Shown: positions 4,696 through 20,024 of the stretch, piece after piece
Layout of the letters: each line of letters begins with the position of its first letter
Position numbering within the stretch: the first letter of the stretch is position 1
Virus genome (UHGV): UHGV-0430895
Source: a virus
Strand: one strand, 5' to 3'
DNA length: 27,017 nt
Program-made: the position numbers and the translations under genes
The notes under the pieces: model-generated
What the model was told of the DNA's origin: nothing
Seen by the model: only the letters and a program-made list of their open reading frames with translations
Databases searched by the model: none

Positions 4696-6609
4696 TCAGG
4701 CTGCCGGGCTGTTCACTTCCACTGTCAGCGTGTCAATCCACGTTTCATACGTGGCTGTATTCGACGCATCCGTCAGAATAAGCGTGTTTTCCTGTCCTTC
4801 ATATTTAAAACAGGACAGCTGTGTGGTCGGGGCTTTTACCGTATCCACGTATGGCGTCACCGTGTTCTGGCCTCCTCCCGGATATACCAGCTCCAGTGTG
4901 TGCCATTCACTGTTCAGCGTACCGTATCCCGCAACACGCGTCTGCGCTGCACCATTGTGCATCAGACTGAGTTTGCCATCCGTTTCTGTCTGCAGATAGA
5001 ACGCCACCAGGAACGGATGGGTACCGTCCGCCTTATTGGCAAATTCCACACCTTCCGGGATATCGTTTTCCTTCAGCTGCAGATACATCGCCAGGGCTAT
5101 CTGTTTTCCGTTCGCACTCCCTGGTATTTTAAAGCGACAGGTGATTTTGCCGCCGTTTTTCAGCAGTTCCGCCGCATTTGCCACTTCACGGGTCAGCTTC
5201 AGGTTCATTGCTTCATCCTGGCTCAGTTTCAGCGCCCGCCCGGAAGTACTGCTTTCATCCTGTACCACTTCCGCCTTACCTTCGCTCAGCGTCCAGCCCT
5301 GTTCGGCATAAGCACCTTCACTTTCTGCACCGCTGTACAGGGTGGTAACGTTACTCTTCGGTTTTGCCGGTTCCGGATAGTTTTCCGTTATATCTCCACC
5401 GGCAAGGAACGGTCCGTTACGCCCTGCATGGGTCAGGATTGCGGTGGCTATACGGTCCGGCAGGATGCCGCGACGGGCCCAGGAACTGAAATGCATGGCG
5501 CGTGTCGGGTTCGTCCAGTTACCCGCCGTGCGTGATGCTGCACCGTAATAATTTGCTTCGGGCACATCCGGATCTTCTGCCGGGTTATTGGTCGGAACAT
5601 TCGCACCGGTCTCATCCTTCATGAGTTCGACAAAATGCACATTCGGCTCACTGTTTTTACGGTACGCGCCATAAACCAGGCTGTATTGTGTCGGGTACTG
5701 CTGCTTCCACCAGAAGGTGGTATCACCACATACCCACGGTACGCGGGCCGCATCACCACCCAGACACTGACCGGCATATGCCGCCAGATCGGTACGGAAC
5801 TGCTTCACCATGGCCGTAAACAACGCCGGATGCCCCGTGTAACCTGAAGACATACAGTCACCCTCGCCCTGCATCCAGTACACGGCCAGCAGGACGTTTT
5901 TCGCGTTCTTTTCAAGGGCGGCCTTCGTGCGGGCAATTAAATCCATGTACAACGGTTTACCCACACCCCAGCGGGAGGAATCCGCTGTTGCCCCCGTCTC
6001 CGGGTTATAGGTACCCTCATCACGATCGGTAAACGCAGAGCCGCCACGACTGCACGGCACAATCAGGATCCCCGCATTAACCGGAATATAGGGCAGAAGA
6101 CGTTTGGCAATATGCAGGCCGTGCCCGACACAACCATACTGACCACGGGAAAGGTCCGCGTTGGGGTGATTTTTGGCACTCATGTCTTCAACGTCATGGA
6201 GACAGTGATCGGCCTCAATCACATCGTTGTATTTACAGGCAGCACCACCCGGTCGGACCACACTGCGGCGGGCCAGCTGCTTAATGCGTGGATCGGGACG
6301 GTCGTAGCTGTCAGGCAGGGGCATACCTTCGCCGGTTGCCATATTGTTGGACTGACCTGCGGTGACCAGCACATAGTAATATTCAGGCTCACGGGTCGGC
6401 TCGCTCACCACCGCACCGCCTTCCTCCGGTGTCACCACGACAGGCGTGGTGACATCCCCTTCTGCGGCAATCGCCTGCATCAGGGTATAAGGGGTAATGG
6501 CGACCGGGCTGCCAAACGGCTGCCAGCCTTCCTTCAGTTTTTGAGTCAGTCGCTCCGCAAGGTCTGACGGCGACGCCGCCCTGACCACGTCATAGTGTTT
6601 AAATGCCAT
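4696..6609 (-). CDS. nanS-p: NanS-p type 9-O-acetyl-sialic acid esterase (DUF1737 N-terminal domain + SASA/SGNH esterase)
   Basis: 637 aa; N-terminus MAFKHYDVV...LKEGWQPFGSPV (DUF1737) and central GQSNNMATG esterase motif. This is the gene normally found between stxB and S in Stx phages. Confidence 0.8.
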   Translation of the reverse strand: MAFKHYDVVRAASPSDLAERLTQKLKEGWQPFGSPVAITPYTLMQAIAAEGDVTTPVVVTPEEGGAVVSEPTREPEYYYVLVTAGQSNNMATGEGMPLPDSYDRPDPRIKQLARRSVVRPGGAACKYNDVIEADHCLHDVEDMSAKNHPNADLSRGQYGCVGHGLHIAKRLLPYIPVNAGILIVPCSRGGSAFTDRDEGTYNPETGATADSSRWGVGKPLYMDLIARTKAALEKNAKNVLLAVYWMQGEGDCMSSGYTGHPALFTAMVKQFRTDLAAYAGQCLGGDAARVPWVCGDTTFWWKQQYPTQYSLVYGAYRKNSEPNVHFVELMKDETGANVPTNNPAEDPDVPEANYYGAASRTAGNWTNPTRAMHFSSWARRGILPDRIATAILTHAGRNGPFLAGGDITENYPEPAKPKSNVTTLYSGAESEGAYAEQGWTLSEGKAEVVQDESSTSGRALKLSQDEAMNLKLTREVANAAELLKNGGKITCRFKIPGSANGKQIALAMYLQLKENDIPEGVEFANKADGTHPFLVAFYLQTETDGKLSLMHNGAAQTRVAGYGTLNSEWHTLELVYPGGGQNTVTPYVDTVKAPTTQLSCFKYEGQENTLILTDASNTATYETWIDTLTVEVNSPAA

Positions 6610-6834: not shown

Positions 6835-7108
6835 TATCCATAAGAAAGCCCCTCCGGAGAGGGGCTGACGCTGCGTATCTGTATCATCATGCGCATGGTG
6901 CCGGGTGCCTCCCGGTGAGTTCAGTATCAGCACCTGAACCCGCACAGAAAGGATAAGGCTAAACGAAAACACCTGTACTGATATGCCCCGCCGCTGAGGG
7001 GGATTCACCATGCGACGCGATTTTTAACAAATTCGCAGTCAGTCAGACAATAATCAACTTGCTGAATTGTGAGGTATTTAAAAATTTCACCAGCTAACTG
7101 ATACCAGG

Positions 7109-7273
7109 CTAACCGTCTGGTGTTTTCTTTTTCAGCAACGGGAAAACAACAACCACAACACCAGCCACCAGCATCCCATCTGCCAGCACTGACATTATCC
7201 GGCTGCTGAAGTCCACCATCACGACAAGAAACAGCAGAACTACCACAATGGCCAGGCGCAGTTTTACCGTCAC
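7109..7273 (-). CDS. Candidate 54-aa two-TM membrane protein, translationally coupled to the TerB-like gene (below ORF-track cutoff)
   Basis: GTG start overlaps the TerB-like stop (GTGA overlap), with GGAG 8 nt upstream. Translation (M)TVKLRLAIVVVLLFLVVMVDFSSRIMSVLADGMLVAGVVVVVFPLLKKKTPDG, verified codon by codon. Confidence 0.45.
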   Translation of the reverse strand: MTVKLRLAIVVVLLFLVVMVDFSSRIMSVLADGMLVAGVVVVVFPLLKKKTPDG

Positions 7274-7701
7274 AGGTGATTCTCCAGACGAAGGCCCAGA
7301 ACACCGGCTATCTCTTCCAGCACCTTGCGCTCTTCCGGCTCAATTTCGCCATCTGATTCCGCAATGGCCACCGCCACATCCAGTACATCTTCCGCTTCTC
7401 GCATATCGTGTTTCACGTCCTCGATCTCACGTAACGCTGCACGACGACCTATTTTGAAGTTGGTGTCCAGCTGACCAGTGATGGTTGCGCTAATCGCATT
7501 AATTTCTGACGTAAACGCTGACAATGCAGGTTGGTTACGCAGTACCTGTTCGATCTTCGCTTTCTCGGAAGCCTCACACTCACCATCTGCATAAGCCACC
7601 AGGTATGCAGCGTTAATCACCGCCTGGGCCAGATCGCGTTTTTCAAACTTTTTAATTTCCGCTGCCGCTCTGCGGGTTTTCTTTTTGAAGATTCCAAACA
7701 T
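7270..7701 (-). CDS. TerB-like (tellurite-resistance TerB domain) protein, prophage moron
   Basis: 144 aa from MFGIFKKK. Helical, acidic, with AAYLVAYADGECEASEKAKIEQVL and IAESDGEIEPEERKVLEEIAGVLGL repeats typical of the TerB fold. Confidence 0.6.
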   Translation of the reverse strand: MFGIFKKKTRRAAAEIKKFEKRDLAQAVINAAYLVAYADGECEASEKAKIEQVLRNQPALSAFTSEINAISATITGQLDTNFKIGRRAALREIEDVKHDMREAEDVLDVAVAIAESDGEIEPEERKVLEEIAGVLGLRLENHL

Positions 7702-7833
7702 CGTGACGTTCCTTTGGGTGGGTGAGCCAACGCCCGGGAGCGATCTGCCCACAGAGAAAGTCACACTGACCACTCCGTAAGCTCACCCCCGAAAGGCTCT
7801 GTGGTTGATATGCGCCGGGCGTGGCGCGGATAC

Positions 7834-8463: not shown

Positions 8464-8540
8464 TGGCGCGTTGTACTGGATTCGAACCAGTGACCGATTG
8501 CTTAGAAGGCAATTGCTCTGTCCGGCTGAGCTAACAACGC
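8464..8540 (-). tRNA. tRNA-Arg (anticodon TCT)
   Basis: Manual cloverleaf: acceptor GCGTTGT/ACAACGC, D-arm GCTC...GAGC, anticodon stem ATTGC/GCAAT with loop CTTCTAA, T-loop TTCGAAT, 3' CCA encoded. Confidence 0.8.
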
Positions 8541-8553
8541 AGGGTACGGATAA

Positions 8554-8630
8554 TGGACCGCCATCGAGGACTCGAACCCCGCGCAACCAGCTTCGAAGGC
8601 TGGCGCTCTATCCCGATGAGCTAATGGCGG
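8554..8630 (-). tRNA. tRNA-Arg (anticodon TCG)
   Basis: Manual cloverleaf: anticodon stem CCAGC/GCTGG with loop CTTCGAA, T-arm CGGGG-TTCGAGT-CCTCG, 3' CCA encoded. Exact ends are uncertain by a few nt. Confidence 0.7.
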
Positions 8631-8637
8631 TATGTGA

Positions 8638-8713
8638 TGGTGGCCCTTGCTGGATTTGAACCAGCGACCTGGCGATTATGAGTCGCTCGCTCTCACCACT
8701 GAGCTAAAGGGCC
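8638..8713 (-). tRNA. tRNA with CAT anticodon (Ile2/Met type, ileZ-like of Stx phages)
   Basis: Manual cloverleaf: acceptor GGCCCTT, D-arm GCTCAGTGGTGAGAGC, anticodon loop CTCATAA, T-loop TTCAAAT, 3' CCA encoded. Same position as ileZ-argN-argO in Stx phages. Confidence 0.75.
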
Positions 8714-13223: not shown

Positions 13224-13379
13224 TTACTTCTCAGATTCGTAGTCTACGAAGACAGCGACCTCCGTCTGGCCGGTTCGGATTCGTACCTCGCAGAGGTCTT
13301 TCCTCGTTACCAGTGCCGTCACTATGACGGTTAAACAGATGACAATCAGGGCGATTAACATCGCCTTTTGCTGCTTCAT
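13224..13379 (-). CDS. hokD: Hok/Gef-family type I toxin (HokD/RelF-like)
   Basis: MKQQKAMLIALIVICLTVIVTALVTRKDLCEVRIRTGQTEVAVF... is essentially the HokD sequence as I recall it. The upstream region is strongly structured (9-bp inverted repeat CTGTCTGCC/GGCAGACAG). Confidence 0.8.
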   Translation of the reverse strand: MKQQKAMLIALIVICLTVIVTALVTRKDLCEVRIRTGQTEVAVFVDYESEK

Positions 13380-13624
13380 AGCCTGCTTCTCCTTGCCTTT
13401 CGGCACGTAAGAGGCTAACCTACATGTGCAAAGCATGAAATTGGCCTCAGATTAATGTTAAGCGTCTTGCCGGACGCGTAATGTTAACTGGGGCTTTTCT
13501 CTGTCTGCCTTACGGTGGCATGCCCGAGGCAGACAGCCTCAAGCACCCGCAGCAATTCTACTTAACTCTCGCTTTACCGCAAACCGTTTTTACCCGATAT
13601 GGGAATCCCCATATCGCAATGAAA

Positions 13625-18144: not shown

Positions 18145-18516
18145 ATGCAAAAAAAAGAAATTCGCCGTTTACGTCTCAAGGAGTGGTTTAAAGATAAAAC
18201 TCTGCCACCCAAAGAGAAGAGCTACCTATCTCAACTAATGAGCGGGAGAGCCTCGTTTGGAGAAAAGGCTGCCAGAAGAATAGAGCAAACATACGGGATG
18301 CCGGAAGGGTATTTGGATGCGGAATACGCAGAACAACCGGAGGTTTCTCCGCCACATGCAGGGTTAACGTCTAATCAACTGGAATTATTGCAGATTTTTT
18401 CAGCCTTCCCTGAGGATGAGCAACGCCAGATAATCAGCGAGTTAAAACAGAAAAAAGAATCAATGGAAGATCTCATAGCGAGATGGATTGCGGCGCAAAA
18501 ATGCCGCCGCGCCTAA
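18145..18516 (+). CDS. dicA: DicA-like prophage repressor (XRE HTH, no S24 peptidase domain)
   Basis: HTH (LSQLMSGRASFGEKAARRIEQTYGMPEGYL) and a C-terminal LTSNQLELLQIFSAFPEDEQ motif paralleling DicA's LSPKELELLELFNALPESEQ. Confidence 0.7.
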   Translation: MQKKEIRRLRLKEWFKDKTLPPKEKSYLSQLMSGRASFGEKAARRIEQTYGMPEGYLDAEYAEQPEVSPPHAGLTSNQLELLQIFSAFPEDEQRQIISELKQKKESMEDLIARWIAAQKCRRA

Positions 18517-18536
18517 GTTATAAAACCGGAGGAAAC

Positions 18537-18728
18537 ATGAATAGAGCCCTTTCACCAATGGTTTCTGAGTTTGAAACCATTGAACAAGAAAACAGTTACA
18601 ACGAATGGCTGCGTGCGAAAGTAGCAACGAGCCTTGCAGATCCGCGCCCAGCAATTCCCCATGACGAAGTTGAGCGCAGAATGGCAGAACGCTTTGCTAA
18701 AATGCGCAAGGAACGGAGCAAGCAGTAA
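18537..18728 (+). CDS. ParD-like type II antitoxin
   Basis: 63 aa with GGAGG RBS; C-terminal LADPRPAIPHDEVERRMAERFAKMRKE resembles ParD-family antitoxin tails. Its stop is 1 nt from the toxin start. Confidence 0.6.
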   Translation: MNRALSPMVSEFETIEQENSYNEWLRAKVATSLADPRPAIPHDEVERRMAERFAKMRKERSKQ

Positions 18729-18729
18729 A

Positions 18730-19008
18730 ATGTTACCCGTGTTATGGCTTGAAAGCGCAGATACCGACCTAGATGATATAACTAGTTATATTGCTCGTTT
18801 CGACATAGATGCGGCAGAACGCTTATGGCAGCGATTAAGGGGTTGTGTGCTGCCGTTATCCGAACATCCGTATTTATACCCACCAAGCGACAGAGTACCT
18901 GGCTTGCGTGAGATTGTGGCCCACCCTAACTATATAATTCTATACCGCGTAACAACATCAAGCGTTGAAGTAGTAAACGTGATCCACGCAAGACGCCAGT
19001 TTCCCTAA
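18730..19008 (+). CDS. ParE/RelE-superfamily type II toxin
   Basis: 92 aa; C-terminal YIILYRVTTSSVEVVNVIHARRQF matches the ParE signature (YRI...V.I.RV.H.R). Confidence 0.7.
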   Translation: MLPVLWLESADTDLDDITSYIARFDIDAAERLWQRLRGCVLPLSEHPYLYPPSDRVPGLREIVAHPNYIILYRVTTSSVEVVNVIHARRQFP

Positions 19009-19298: not shown

Positions 19299-19451
19299 AT
19301 GGATACCATCGATCTTGGCAACAACGAATCTCTGGTGTGCGGCGTCTTCCCCAATCAGGACGGCACGTTTACCGCGATGACGTATACCAAAAGTAAAACG
19401 TTTAAAACCGAAGCTGGCGCGCATCGCTGGTTAGCCAGAAACGCCAACTGA
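19299..19451 (+). CDS. ydfA: YdfA-like (DUF1391) 50-aa protein (below ORF-track cutoff)
   Basis: ATG with GAGGT RBS. Translation MDTIDLGNNESLVCGVFPNQDGTFTAMTYTKSKTFKTEAGAHRWLARNAN. First gene of the dicB-type operon, as in Qin. Confidence 0.55.
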   Translation: MDTIDLGNNESLVCGVFPNQDGTFTAMTYTKSKTFKTEAGAHRWLARNAN

Positions 19452-19597
19452 TTAGCGCCAGTAAAAACAGGTTTCCACAGGTTAATGTACCCTGAAAAGT
19501 CATGGCATAACACGAAAGCGCACGGAGAGGTTTCTTTGCATATAAGTCTTGTCGTTAAATTTCTTCGACCGTGCGCTTCCGGTTGTGTAGCCAGTGC

Positions 19598-19657
19598 AAC
19601 CTCGTGGTGTACCCATTGGCGGCATCGGTTTGTTGCTGACTGATGTCCGCCCTTTTT
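19598..19657 (+). ncRNA. dicF: DicF-like sRNA with intrinsic terminator
   Basis: Core UUGGCGGCAUCGGUUU...GCUGACUGAUGUCCGCCC-UUUUU parallels K-12 DicF (UUGGCGGUAUCAGUUUUACUCCGUGACUGCUCUGCCGCCC-UUUUU) as recalled. Lies between ydfA-like and dicB, the native dicF position. Confidence 0.6.
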
Positions 19658-19835
19658 AAAGTGAATTTTGTGATGCGATGAATGCGGCTATGCGCACGCG
19701 GAACAGTTAAAGCAGTAAGGCGGTATTTTACTGGCGTAACAAGCATCAACTAACCCGGCGTTAATTGTTAACTGGTTAACGTCACCTGGAGGCACCAGGC
19801 ACTGCATCACAAAATTCATTGTTGAGGACGCGATA

Positions 19836-20024
19836 ATGGAAACGTTATTACCAAACGTTAATACGTCTGACGGTTGTTTCGATATTGGTGTTCTGCTCAG
19901 TAACCGGGAGTTTACTGAAGATGCCATTAAGATGAGAAAATATGAGCCTTATCTTCTCAATGATAATTCCATACTCTCCAGAATTGCCCTTCTTGAACTT
20001 GGTATTTTCGGAGAATGTCAATGA
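19836..20024 (+). CDS. dicB: DicB cell-division inhibitor (Kil-like)
   Basis: 62 aa; METLLPNVNTSDGCFDIGVLLSN..FTEDAIKMRK... closely parallels K-12 DicB (MKTLLPNVNTSEGCFEIGV...FTEDAINKRK). Confidence 0.85.
   Translation: METLLPNVNTSDGCFDIGVLLSNREFTEDAIKMRKYEPYLLNDNSILSRIALLELGIFGECQ

Follow-up and report, generated by a model that had tools for sequence, protein, structure and literature searches.

A conserved pseudoknotted RNA domain related to STnc100/PasD in the dicF-dicB spacer of a lambdoid prophage

Introduction

DicF and DicB form a textbook prophage cell-division module; how expression of DicB gets beyond the DicF terminator has, to our knowledge, been described only poorly. Here, we analyse UHGV virus genome UHGV-0430895, a stretch of 27,017 nucleotides (nt; referred to as the window), which contains a DicF-like RNA, a spacer and the dicB gene in this order. 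The original prediction for this locus drew attention to a perfect 15-bp inverted repeat in the spacer and interpreted it as a long stem that would sequester the spacer and bring the dicB ribosome-binding site (RBS) close to a processing site. The repeat forms the outer portion of a longer helix, P1 (21 bp), which closes a pseudoknotted RNA domain of ∼140 nt that fills the dicF-dicB spacer. The 180-nt spacer is a conserved folded RNA, more conserved than DicF, and its fold joins the dicBF literature with the abundant and functionally unexplained STnc100/PasD RNAs of pathogenic Escherichia coli. Processing by RNase III at this position was already known in E. coli K-12; the kinship with STnc100/PasD, the pseudoknot and the modular cassette, including two copies in K-12, are new.

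The dicBF-type locus and its inverted repeat

The first gene of the operon is a ydfA-like open reading frame (ORF), followed by the DicF-like RNA, the spacer and dicB (Table 1). The downstream gene is dicB, as originally assumed. According to the ORF list, a ydfD-like ORF and a large exonuclease ORF lie 3′ of dicB, and the ydfA-like ORF is preceded by a ParDE/RelBE-type pair and a divergent repressor pair. From this gene layout around dicB, the locus is a dicBF-type early-left operon of a lambdoid prophage. K-12 shares the layout ydfA ... dicF - spacer - dicB - ydfD - exonuclease, including a terminator-type hairpin with U-tract, whereas the window lacks ydfB and ydfC and has the toxin-antitoxin pair inserted upstream. 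The closest relative among complete E. coli genomes is strain GE3, with 97% identity across ydfA-ydfD. A protein-coding spacer was rejected, as the ORF list contains no plus-strand ORF of at least 25 amino acids (aa) between positions 19657 and 19836.

The two arms of the repeat, TGAATTTTGTGATGC (19662-19676) and GCATCACAAAATTCA (19804-19818), are perfectly complementary over 15 bp and lie 127 nt apart, exactly as reported originally. The longest perfect inverted repeat reached at most 13 bp in 200 first-order Markov simulations of positions 19400-19950 (551 nt), and was usually 8-9 bp long (mode 8). Folding of 19590-19840, the check originally proposed, recovers the closing stem with 18 bp in the minimum-free-energy (MFE) structure (z = -3.2 against dinucleotide shuffles). 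On its 3′ side, P1 ends 4 nt before the Shine-Dalgarno (SD) sequence of dicB, and the start codon is located at +16 nt.

Table 1. Positions of RNA elements and genes in the window. R1 is a covariance model introduced in the section on STnc100 and PasD.
Feature	Position	Strand	Evidence and remarks
Canonical STnc100 copy with its own terminator	6836-7043	-	Rfam RF02076, 133 bits; R1, 94 bits
ydfA-like (DUF1391) ORF, first gene of the dicBF-type operon	19299-19451	+	ORF list; homologue annotated as DUF1391 (E. coli GE3) or ydfA (K-12 lineage)
Long irregular hairpin 5′ of the DicF-like RNA	19506-19587	+	Core arms 19513-19525 / 19569-19581; repeat of 13 nt, 92% complementary; MFE z = -2.9
DicF-like RNA	19604-19657	+	Single-stranded diverged 5′ part, hairpin 19618-19651, U-tract 19653-19657 (intrinsic terminator)
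P1, 5′ strand	19660-19680	+	Contains arm 19662-19676; 21 pairs, 94.8% of cells paired; same helix in RNAalifold
P2 hairpin GCGGC-UAUGC-GC(A)CGC	19684-19699	+	5 bp, bulged A, U-N-N-G-C pentaloop; 99% paired; register and loop consensus shared with STnc100-type copies
Pseudoknot, 5′ strand CAGUUAA	19704-19710	+	Pairs with 19768-19774 in the P4 loop; 7 pairs, 99.6% paired
Variable P3 region	19711-19756	+	Local hairpin CAGUAAGG...UUUUACUG (MFE); closing helix 19700-19701 / 19755-19756
P4 hairpin GGCGUUAA-UUGUUAACUGG-UUAACGUC	19757-19783	+	8 bp, 97.8% paired; loop holds pseudoknot 3′ strand 19768-19774
P5 hairpin CCUGG-AGGCA-CCAGG	19785-19799	+	Directly abuts the P1 3′ strand
P1, 3′ strand	19800-19820	+	Contains arm 19804-19818; pair counts and RNAalifold
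dicB SD GAGGA (19824-19828) and dicB ORF (19836-20024; ATG 19836, 62 aa)	19824-20024	+	ORF list; DicB annotation in homologous records

A pseudoknotted domain fills the spacer

The elements of the domain follow one another in the order P1 - AAU - P2 - short P3 closure with variable insert - P4 - A - P5. Both MFE folding of the window sequence by itself and, independently, RNAalifold yield P1, P2, P4 and P5. Our own parse of the structure was checked by pair counts in 40 spacer-type sequences (A5) and in 31 sequences of the STnc100 type described below (A4). In the consensus of the family, P2 comprises 5-6 bp and often a bulged base, P4 comprises 8 bp with a GG start and a UC end, and P5 reads CCNGG-AGGCA-CCNGG. 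The P3 closure encloses one pseudoknot strand and a variable hairpin (RNAalifold columns 46-48/109-111, with covariation at 48/109), and the sequence and length of the P3 region differ among copies.

Pairing is maintained across the family by compensatory changes. In the spacer type, 97% of cells are paired, compared with 32-40% when the partners are slid against each other, and changes on both sides are found at 18 pairs (12 of 21 in P1, 5 of 8 in P4 and 1 of 5 in P5). In the Klebsiella phage copies, P1 consists of CAGACCTTGCAATGCAGTG / CACTGCATTGCAAGGTCTG, which is wholly different in sequence yet fully complementary. Klebsiella phage copies also provide a compensatory example for P4 (GAUACCAG/CUGGUAUC), and all eight P4 pairs are formed in 79 of 111 family members. 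The middle pair of P5 covaries between U-A and G-C in the spacer type (32 versus 8 sequences); in copies that were recovered without the search anchor described below, P5 is kept with the stems GGGGG/CCCCC and CCGUG/CACGG and with A-N-G-C-A loops. For the 31 STnc100-type sequences, the corresponding figures are 85% of cells paired against 41-47% for slid partners, and 152 double-change cells against 23-45.

Covariation in the pseudoknot is seen in the same STnc100-type sequences, where double changes occur at all seven pairs. The strand following P2 and the P4 loop form helices of 6.6 bp on average in cognate combinations and of 4.8 bp in non-cognate ones, with many distinct complementary pairs, such as TATCAGTAC/GTGCTGATA, CCAGTC/GACTGG and GCCAGGTCG/TGACCTGGC. 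These positions are unpaired in the structure line of the Rfam STnc100 model; the present parse supplies a structural model, pseudoknot included, for the whole STnc100/PasD family. The long stem of the original prediction stands as a conserved helix, in which 12 of 21 pairs show compensatory changes across the 40 sequences; the spacer that it was predicted to sequester is a conserved pseudoknotted domain.

An inverted repeat may also act as DNA, as an operator or as a recombination or replication palindrome, or it may be conserved by recent common descent without any function as RNA. The spacers of E. coli prophages are 82-97% identical, so much of their apparent conservation is shared ancestry, and P4 contains GTTAAC palindromes. 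However, compensatory changes maintain pairing where the arms share no sequence (Klebsiella phages, P7/D6), the pseudoknot partners covary, and the spacer is conserved beyond the adjacent DicF-like sequence. G-U pairs are frequent in the spacer-type copies and fit with an RNA on the plus strand; many such positions would be A-C on the other strand. We regard a DNA element, or descent alone, as highly improbable.

A separate observation concerns the P3 hairpin, whose 3′ arm (TTTTACTGGCG, 19726-19736) forms an 11-nt perfect complement with CGCCAGTAAAA at positions 19456-19466 just past the ydfA stop codon. By our own estimate, ∼0.04 such pairs are expected by chance in the stretch.

Kinship with STnc100 and PasD

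The Rfam model for STnc100 (RF02076) matches the spacer at 19664-19813 with 23.8 bits (E=0.003, model positions 21-154 of 206) and homologous spacers with 32.9-43.8 bits (E down to 1e-6). All of these scores are below the gathering score of 47. Annotation pipelines miss spacer copies whose scores fall just under this cut-off, which would be why spacer-type copies are not annotated as STnc100.

To obtain the family more widely, copies were collected with the 19-nt pattern TCACCNGGAGGCACNNGGC, taken from the shared 3′ block. This yielded 150 copies (112 unique ones) from 120 viral loci, and two subtypes can be distinguished: an STnc100 type (GGUGAAUCCCCC...) and a spacer type (GGUGAAUGCGGC...). 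A covariance model, R1, was built from 31 STnc100-type sequences only, without any spacer-type or window sequence. It matches positions 19671-19811 over its full length (1-118 of 118) with 53 bits (E=1e-12), and the other spacer-type copies, namely the K-12-lineage dicB and kilR leaders and those of P7, D6, Klebsiella and Actinobacillus phages, with 49-67 bits. When species-representative genomes are searched, only Enterobacterales yield true members; hits of the pattern in further phyla (Actinomycetota and Planctomycetota, for example) all fail R1 and presumably arose by chance.

The spacer shares with STnc100/PasD the helices P1, P2 with its U-N-N-G-C loop, P4, and P5, which has an AGGCA loop and directly adjoins P1, as well as the junctions GGUGAAU...UCACC, the pseudoknot topology and the location on prophages of Enterobacterales. 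Differences lie in subtype-specific details of the P2 stem and of the P4 loop and pseudoknot (GCGGC... and CAGUUAA/UUAACUG in the spacer), in P1 length (17-21 bp in the spacer, ∼8 bp in STnc100), and in genomic setting: the spacer is the leader of a protein gene in an early-left operon (dicBF or Rac kil), whereas STnc100/PasD are discrete Hfq-bound small RNAs (sRNAs) of the late region. Counted permissively, P1 mostly has at least 21 bp in the spacer type (17-21 bp at least), compared with a median of 8 bp in the STnc100 type. We class the spacer domain as a diverged form of this prophage RNA family (STnc100/PasD) that is embedded in an operon.

Most STnc100-type copies continue into a single-stranded linker and a terminator, in many cases 20-60 nt downstream, and some carry a promoter-like TTGACA-N17-TAAATT just 5′ of P1, as read off the upstream sequences. 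They also occur in arrays of up to seven copies upstream of lysis genes. On the Pantoea plasmid pAPP145_2 (L210, 3112-4487), seven copies within 1.4 kb lie directly 5′ of ORFs that we read as endolysin and spanin, and three IMG/VR loci (L030, L050, L103) contain 3-5 copies with a period of 253 nt and a terminator-like hairpin after most of them.

This kinship raises the question whether the spacer is itself an independent Hfq-dependent sRNA gene with its own promoter and 3′ end, in which the stem would be simply the closing helix. STnc100 copies are expressed, one being confirmed by Northern blot in EDL933 (PMC5331693), and PasD is associated with Hfq (bioRxiv 10.64898/2026.05.13.724894). In the spacer, however, the terminator U-tract and P1 are only 3 nt apart, and no promoter-like site is present in a scan of 19580-19836. 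A terminator within 110 nt downstream is missing in 47 of 48 spacer-type copies, with the dicB start codon following so closely, and no internal promoter was found in the dicBF operon of K-12 (bioRxiv 10.1101/2023.04.14.536235). With neither a promoter nor a terminator of its own, the spacer differs from a discrete sRNA gene, and we consider an independent sRNA gene at this site quite unlikely.

The fold might alternatively belong to a leader that senses a ligand or factor in the manner of a riboswitch, or to a processive antiterminator of the HK022 put type acting on the kill gene. A compact pseudoknotted junction with near-invariant loops (U-N-N-G-C, A-N-G-C-A) and a variable insert is more typical of RNAs that bind ligands or proteins than of sRNAs acting by base pairing, and the terminators close behind many STnc100-type copies would suit a switch. 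Against this, the spacer-type P1 has a length and stability that preclude switching, the element lies downstream of the DicF terminator, and no Rfam riboswitch or ribozyme matches the spacer even at E up to 10. In STnc100-type copies with an altered P2, the downstream terminator does not covary: a switch between P2 and terminator was considered for the E. coli terminator GCCCCTCTCCGGAGGGGC, which resembles P2, and was rejected, since the two are unrelated where P2 is CCTTTC...GAAAGG or CCCATC...GATGGG. As for put, the likeness is an analogy only, in that both are structured phage RNAs in early operons, put acting without a dedicated protein. R1 has no match at E up to 1 in HK022 24-36 kb, a span taken to include the early promoters, and the spacer element follows a terminator rather than preceding one; a put-like antiterminator was discarded on these grounds. 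Sensing or antitermination by the domain is, in our judgement, very unlikely.

A 2026 preprint ties PasD to STnc100 and does not mention DicF or dicB. In a publication that names both STnc100 and DicF, the two meet only within a table, and a literature text search for names in the style of RIL-seq, such as dicF.dicB, found none.

Distribution and the modular cassette

A 251-nt query from the locus matches 4642 of 5426 complete E. coli genomes, with at least 80% of the query covered in 4345 of the 5426. Most matches cover the query only from position 27, a point inside the hairpin of DicF, through the 3′ repeat arm. K-12, like most E. coli genomes, carries the P1 stem in nearly the same form, and the stem is not special to the window variant. 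The exact 78-nt DicF-like variant, by comparison, is present in only 11 of the 5426 genomes; the spacer is better conserved than the DicF-like sequence next to it, which varies strongly among loci, E. albertii carrying yet another hairpin.

The domain occurs as part of a cassette, consisting of a terminator hairpin, the domain and an RBS, upstream of varied genes. Besides dicB, the spacer block precedes kilR in Rac-SA53, Shigella phage 75/02 Stx and an Actinobacillus phage. In the P1-like phages P7 and D6 it lies in the ban operon before tciA/terB, just after tRNA genes, and in Klebsiella phages it precedes small ORFs. Over all copies, the downstream products comprise DicB, KilR, TciA/TerB and small membrane peptides. 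In the spacer type, the start codon of the downstream small host-kill gene is reached within ∼15-35 nt. In a K-12-lineage genome, two copies are present, preceding dicB and kilR, respectively, so that the same cassette stands before the other division-inhibitor gene of K-12.

The kilR leader of Rac in the K-12 lineage (L252, 4260-4392, minus strand) shows a DicF-like terminator hairpin followed by the domain, which scores 49 bits with R1 and has a point change in P5 (CCAGA); the record has no annotated feature in this interval. The homologous Rac-SA53 hairpin scores 41 bits on the Rfam DicF model. The Rho-dependent terminator trac of Rac was considered as the element in the kilR leader and was rejected, as it lies within racR (PMC4150792). 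Phage D6 has a second, more diverged member (L002, 882-987; 31.8 bits) 5′ of tRNA genes, in which P5 is GGGGG/CCCCC and the AGGCA loop is kept.

The DicF-like RNA

The RNA upstream of the spacer had been described as a conserved DicF-like core and terminator with a diverged 5′ half, and a search with the Rfam DicF model (RF00039) had been proposed. The model aligns over its full length to 19604-19652 with 29 bits (E=2e-4 in a 451-nt search), below its gathering score of 48, so RF00039 is not among the window matches at the gathering threshold. In control searches, K-12 DicF scored 76.7 bits and the Rac copy 41.1 bits. The operon context is that of DicF, since the succession of ydfA-like ORF, hairpin with U-tract and dicB is the same as in K-12 and phage Tritos. 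A terminator scan places a terminator-like hairpin with T-run at 19621-19647, and the RNA folds with -22 kcal/mol. The window RNA would thus be a diverged homologue of DicF in front of dicB, as described; its membership of the family is weak because the curated threshold is missed.

The hairpin is closer to the terminator hairpin of the Rac/kil type than to K-12 DicF, and two parts of K-12 DicF are replaced, namely the seed region at the 5′ end and the loop responsible for pairing with the ftsZ RBS. The complementarity of K-12 DicF to the ftsZ RBS (AGUUUUACUCCG against CGGAGAGAAACU) has no equivalent here, the loop being UUGUUGC without the CUCCG anti-SD stretch. Cofolding with ftsZ yields a gain of -3.0 kcal/mol, compared with -9.4 kcal/mol for K-12; neither value beats shuffled sequences, so that the comparison has little power, and full-length duplexfold is uninformative as shuffles score equally. 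Other complementarities of 9-10 nt to the ftsZ leader are located farther upstream in the leader and are buried in the more stable hairpin stem. An altered target spectrum, as originally proposed, is plausible from these differences.

P1 as a probable RNase III processing helix

[quoted passage not shown] The 3′ end of the 72-nt DicF RNA of K-12 depends on RNase III, according to two papers that both cite Faubladier 1990 (PMC5069750, PMC9438474). If this length is counted from the annotated 53-nt RNA, the K-12 end falls between AAAGTGAATTTTGT and GATGTGGTG, inside the homologous P1 5′ strand, which it splits into an outer part of 12 bp and an inner part of 9 bp. The same alignment column in the window is 19671/19672. 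Here too, the K-12-homologous position is helical: P1 comprises 21 bp (about two turns) and is interrupted by a single A-C mismatch. P1 is best read as a candidate RNase III processing helix, and this reading essentially re-finds a K-12 feature from 1990.

RNase III leaves a 2-nt 3′ overhang, and by this rule canonical cleavage of both strands, if it takes place, would cut the second strand at 19810/19811, 25 nt before the dicB AUG. RNase III processing stems are known in phage early transcripts, for instance the lambda N leader, sib and T7 R1.1. These have in common with P1 a helix of about two turns that flanks a structured insert, in a phage early operon and beside a regulated gene start; the window helix differs in enclosing a conserved pseudoknotted domain with independent RNA relatives.

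A 190-nt DicF precursor has been described in K-12 (bioRxiv 10.1101/2023.04.14.536235). Subtracting 53 from 190 puts the RNase III cut at its 5′ end, to within a few nucleotides, at about position 1351 of the K-12-lineage record (L004), probably between CCGTGCG and CTTCC. The long irregular hairpin 5′ of the DicF-like RNA (Table 1) contains a block, CGAAAGCGCA.GG...CGACCGTGCGCTTCCGGTTGTG, that is conserved with K-12, and corresponds by homology to the stretch of K-12 where this cut should fall. As both this hairpin and P1 are conserved, the DicF-like RNA would be bracketed, as in K-12, by two conserved RNase III-type helices. Some 100 nt between upstream hairpin and DicF are missing in the window relative to K-12; the hairpin is nearer to DicF by this distance, and the precursor would measure ∼80-90 nt. 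Two RNase III cleavage-map papers mention DicF in passing only (PMC6212723, PMC5371410).

Proximity of P1 to the dicB SD suggests another role, in which P1 would be a translational repressor that hides the RBS until it is processed or melted. In dicB-type copies, P1 can be extended by hand past one bulged G through seven weak pairs between the terminator tail (UUUUUAA) and the SD region (UUGAGGA), and the unpaired probability of the region from SD to AUG in the window rises from 0.17 to 0.38 after simulated processing. The effect is opposite in K-12, with 0.56 for the full-length and 0.38 for the processed RNA, and disappears in a longer window transcript (0.39 versus 0.38). The extension consists of three G-U and four A-U pairs, and copies of the kilR type and of P7/D6 have no such complementarity to the SD. 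Sequestration of the SD by the stem was rejected on account of these disagreeing partition-function accessibilities, and a repressor role for P1 appears unlikely. Of the original idea that the stem places the dicB RBS near a processing site, the homology of the stem to the RNase III-dependent end of K-12 holds up; the SD itself lies outside the helix, and its accessibility does not shift consistently.

A model for the spacer domain

We consider it probable that the spacer is a P1-closed variant of the STnc100/PasD domain, filling the interval between dicF and dicB, that is cut by RNase III when transcription reads through the terminator. P1 would form once the polymerase has passed the DicF-like terminator. 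RNase III would then cleave P1, at the predicted site 19671/19672 here and at ∼1559/1560 of L004 in the K-12 lineage, between AAAGUGAAUUUUGU and GAUG. Such a cut would provide the DicF-like RNA with an extended 3′ end and uncouple it from the dicB message, and it would trim P1 to 9 bp, a length typical of the family, for which free-standing copies have a median of 8 bp. If both strands were cut, an RNA of ∼139 nt would be released; if only the 5′ strand were cut, the domain would stay on the dicB mRNA as a structured 5′ cap. Cleavage at the window locus, the second-strand cut and any role of the inner domain are predictions of this model.

Several observations weigh against this model or narrow its basis. 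The anchor TCACCNGGAGGCACNNGGC contributes ∼32 of the 53 R1 bits, which leaves only ∼20 bits independent of ascertainment. P2 and the pseudoknot show (almost) no variation among spacer-type copies, so that evidence for them comes from the family at large. The copies of P7 and D6 are embedded in operons yet have a P1 of 9 bp, so a long P1 is not universal in embedded copies. The window has a private G-to-A change at 19678 (GCGATG for GCGGTG), which introduces an A-C mismatch in the inner part of P1; the position is G in E. coli GE3, E. albertii and K-12. Finally, the RNase III site was carried over from K-12 through the alignment and derives from RNA lengths and secondary citations; it is accurate only to within a few nucleotides.

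A wider and more speculative reading, which we hold as a tentative and rather doubtful one, would treat the STnc100, PasD and dic-spacer RNAs as a single compact pseudoknotted class with a function of its own, such as protein or ligand binding or service as a nuclease-resistant 5′ cap, and not mainly as base-pairing sRNAs. Members of this class would be deployed in Enterobacterales temperate phages either free-standing (in tandems of up to seven) or as RNase III-licensed leaders of kill genes (dicB, kilR, tciA); K-12 would hold two unnoticed functional copies, and processing of dicBF would yield a third stable RNA besides DicF and dicB mRNA. Our impression is that the conservation pattern is closer to that of a protein- or ligand-binding or protective RNA than to that of a seed-driven sRNA. 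Should the domain govern how stable kill-gene mRNAs are or how they are processed, this would bear on the silencing of cryptic prophage toxins.

Other elements of the prophage

The window contains a canonical STnc100 copy outside the dicBF-type operon (Table 1). It appears to represent the form that the RNA family of the spacer takes in the late region. Its neighbours are a TerB-like ORF (7270-7773, minus strand) and a 637-aa ORF for a nanS-p-type esterase (4696-6609, minus strand), as read from their translations, and it is located downstream of three tRNA genes (8467-8713, minus strand), a DNA methylase-like ORF and a Q-like ORF.

The toxin-antitoxin pair between the repressor-like genes and ydfA is an overlapping pair of small ORFs (18483-19008, plus strand); the nearest E. 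coli records list their counterparts as an antitoxin of the RelB family and a toxin of the RelE/ParE family. A sok antitoxin RNA at 13374-13548 (minus strand; Rfam RF01794, 117 bits) implies a hok/sok-type module in the same prophage.

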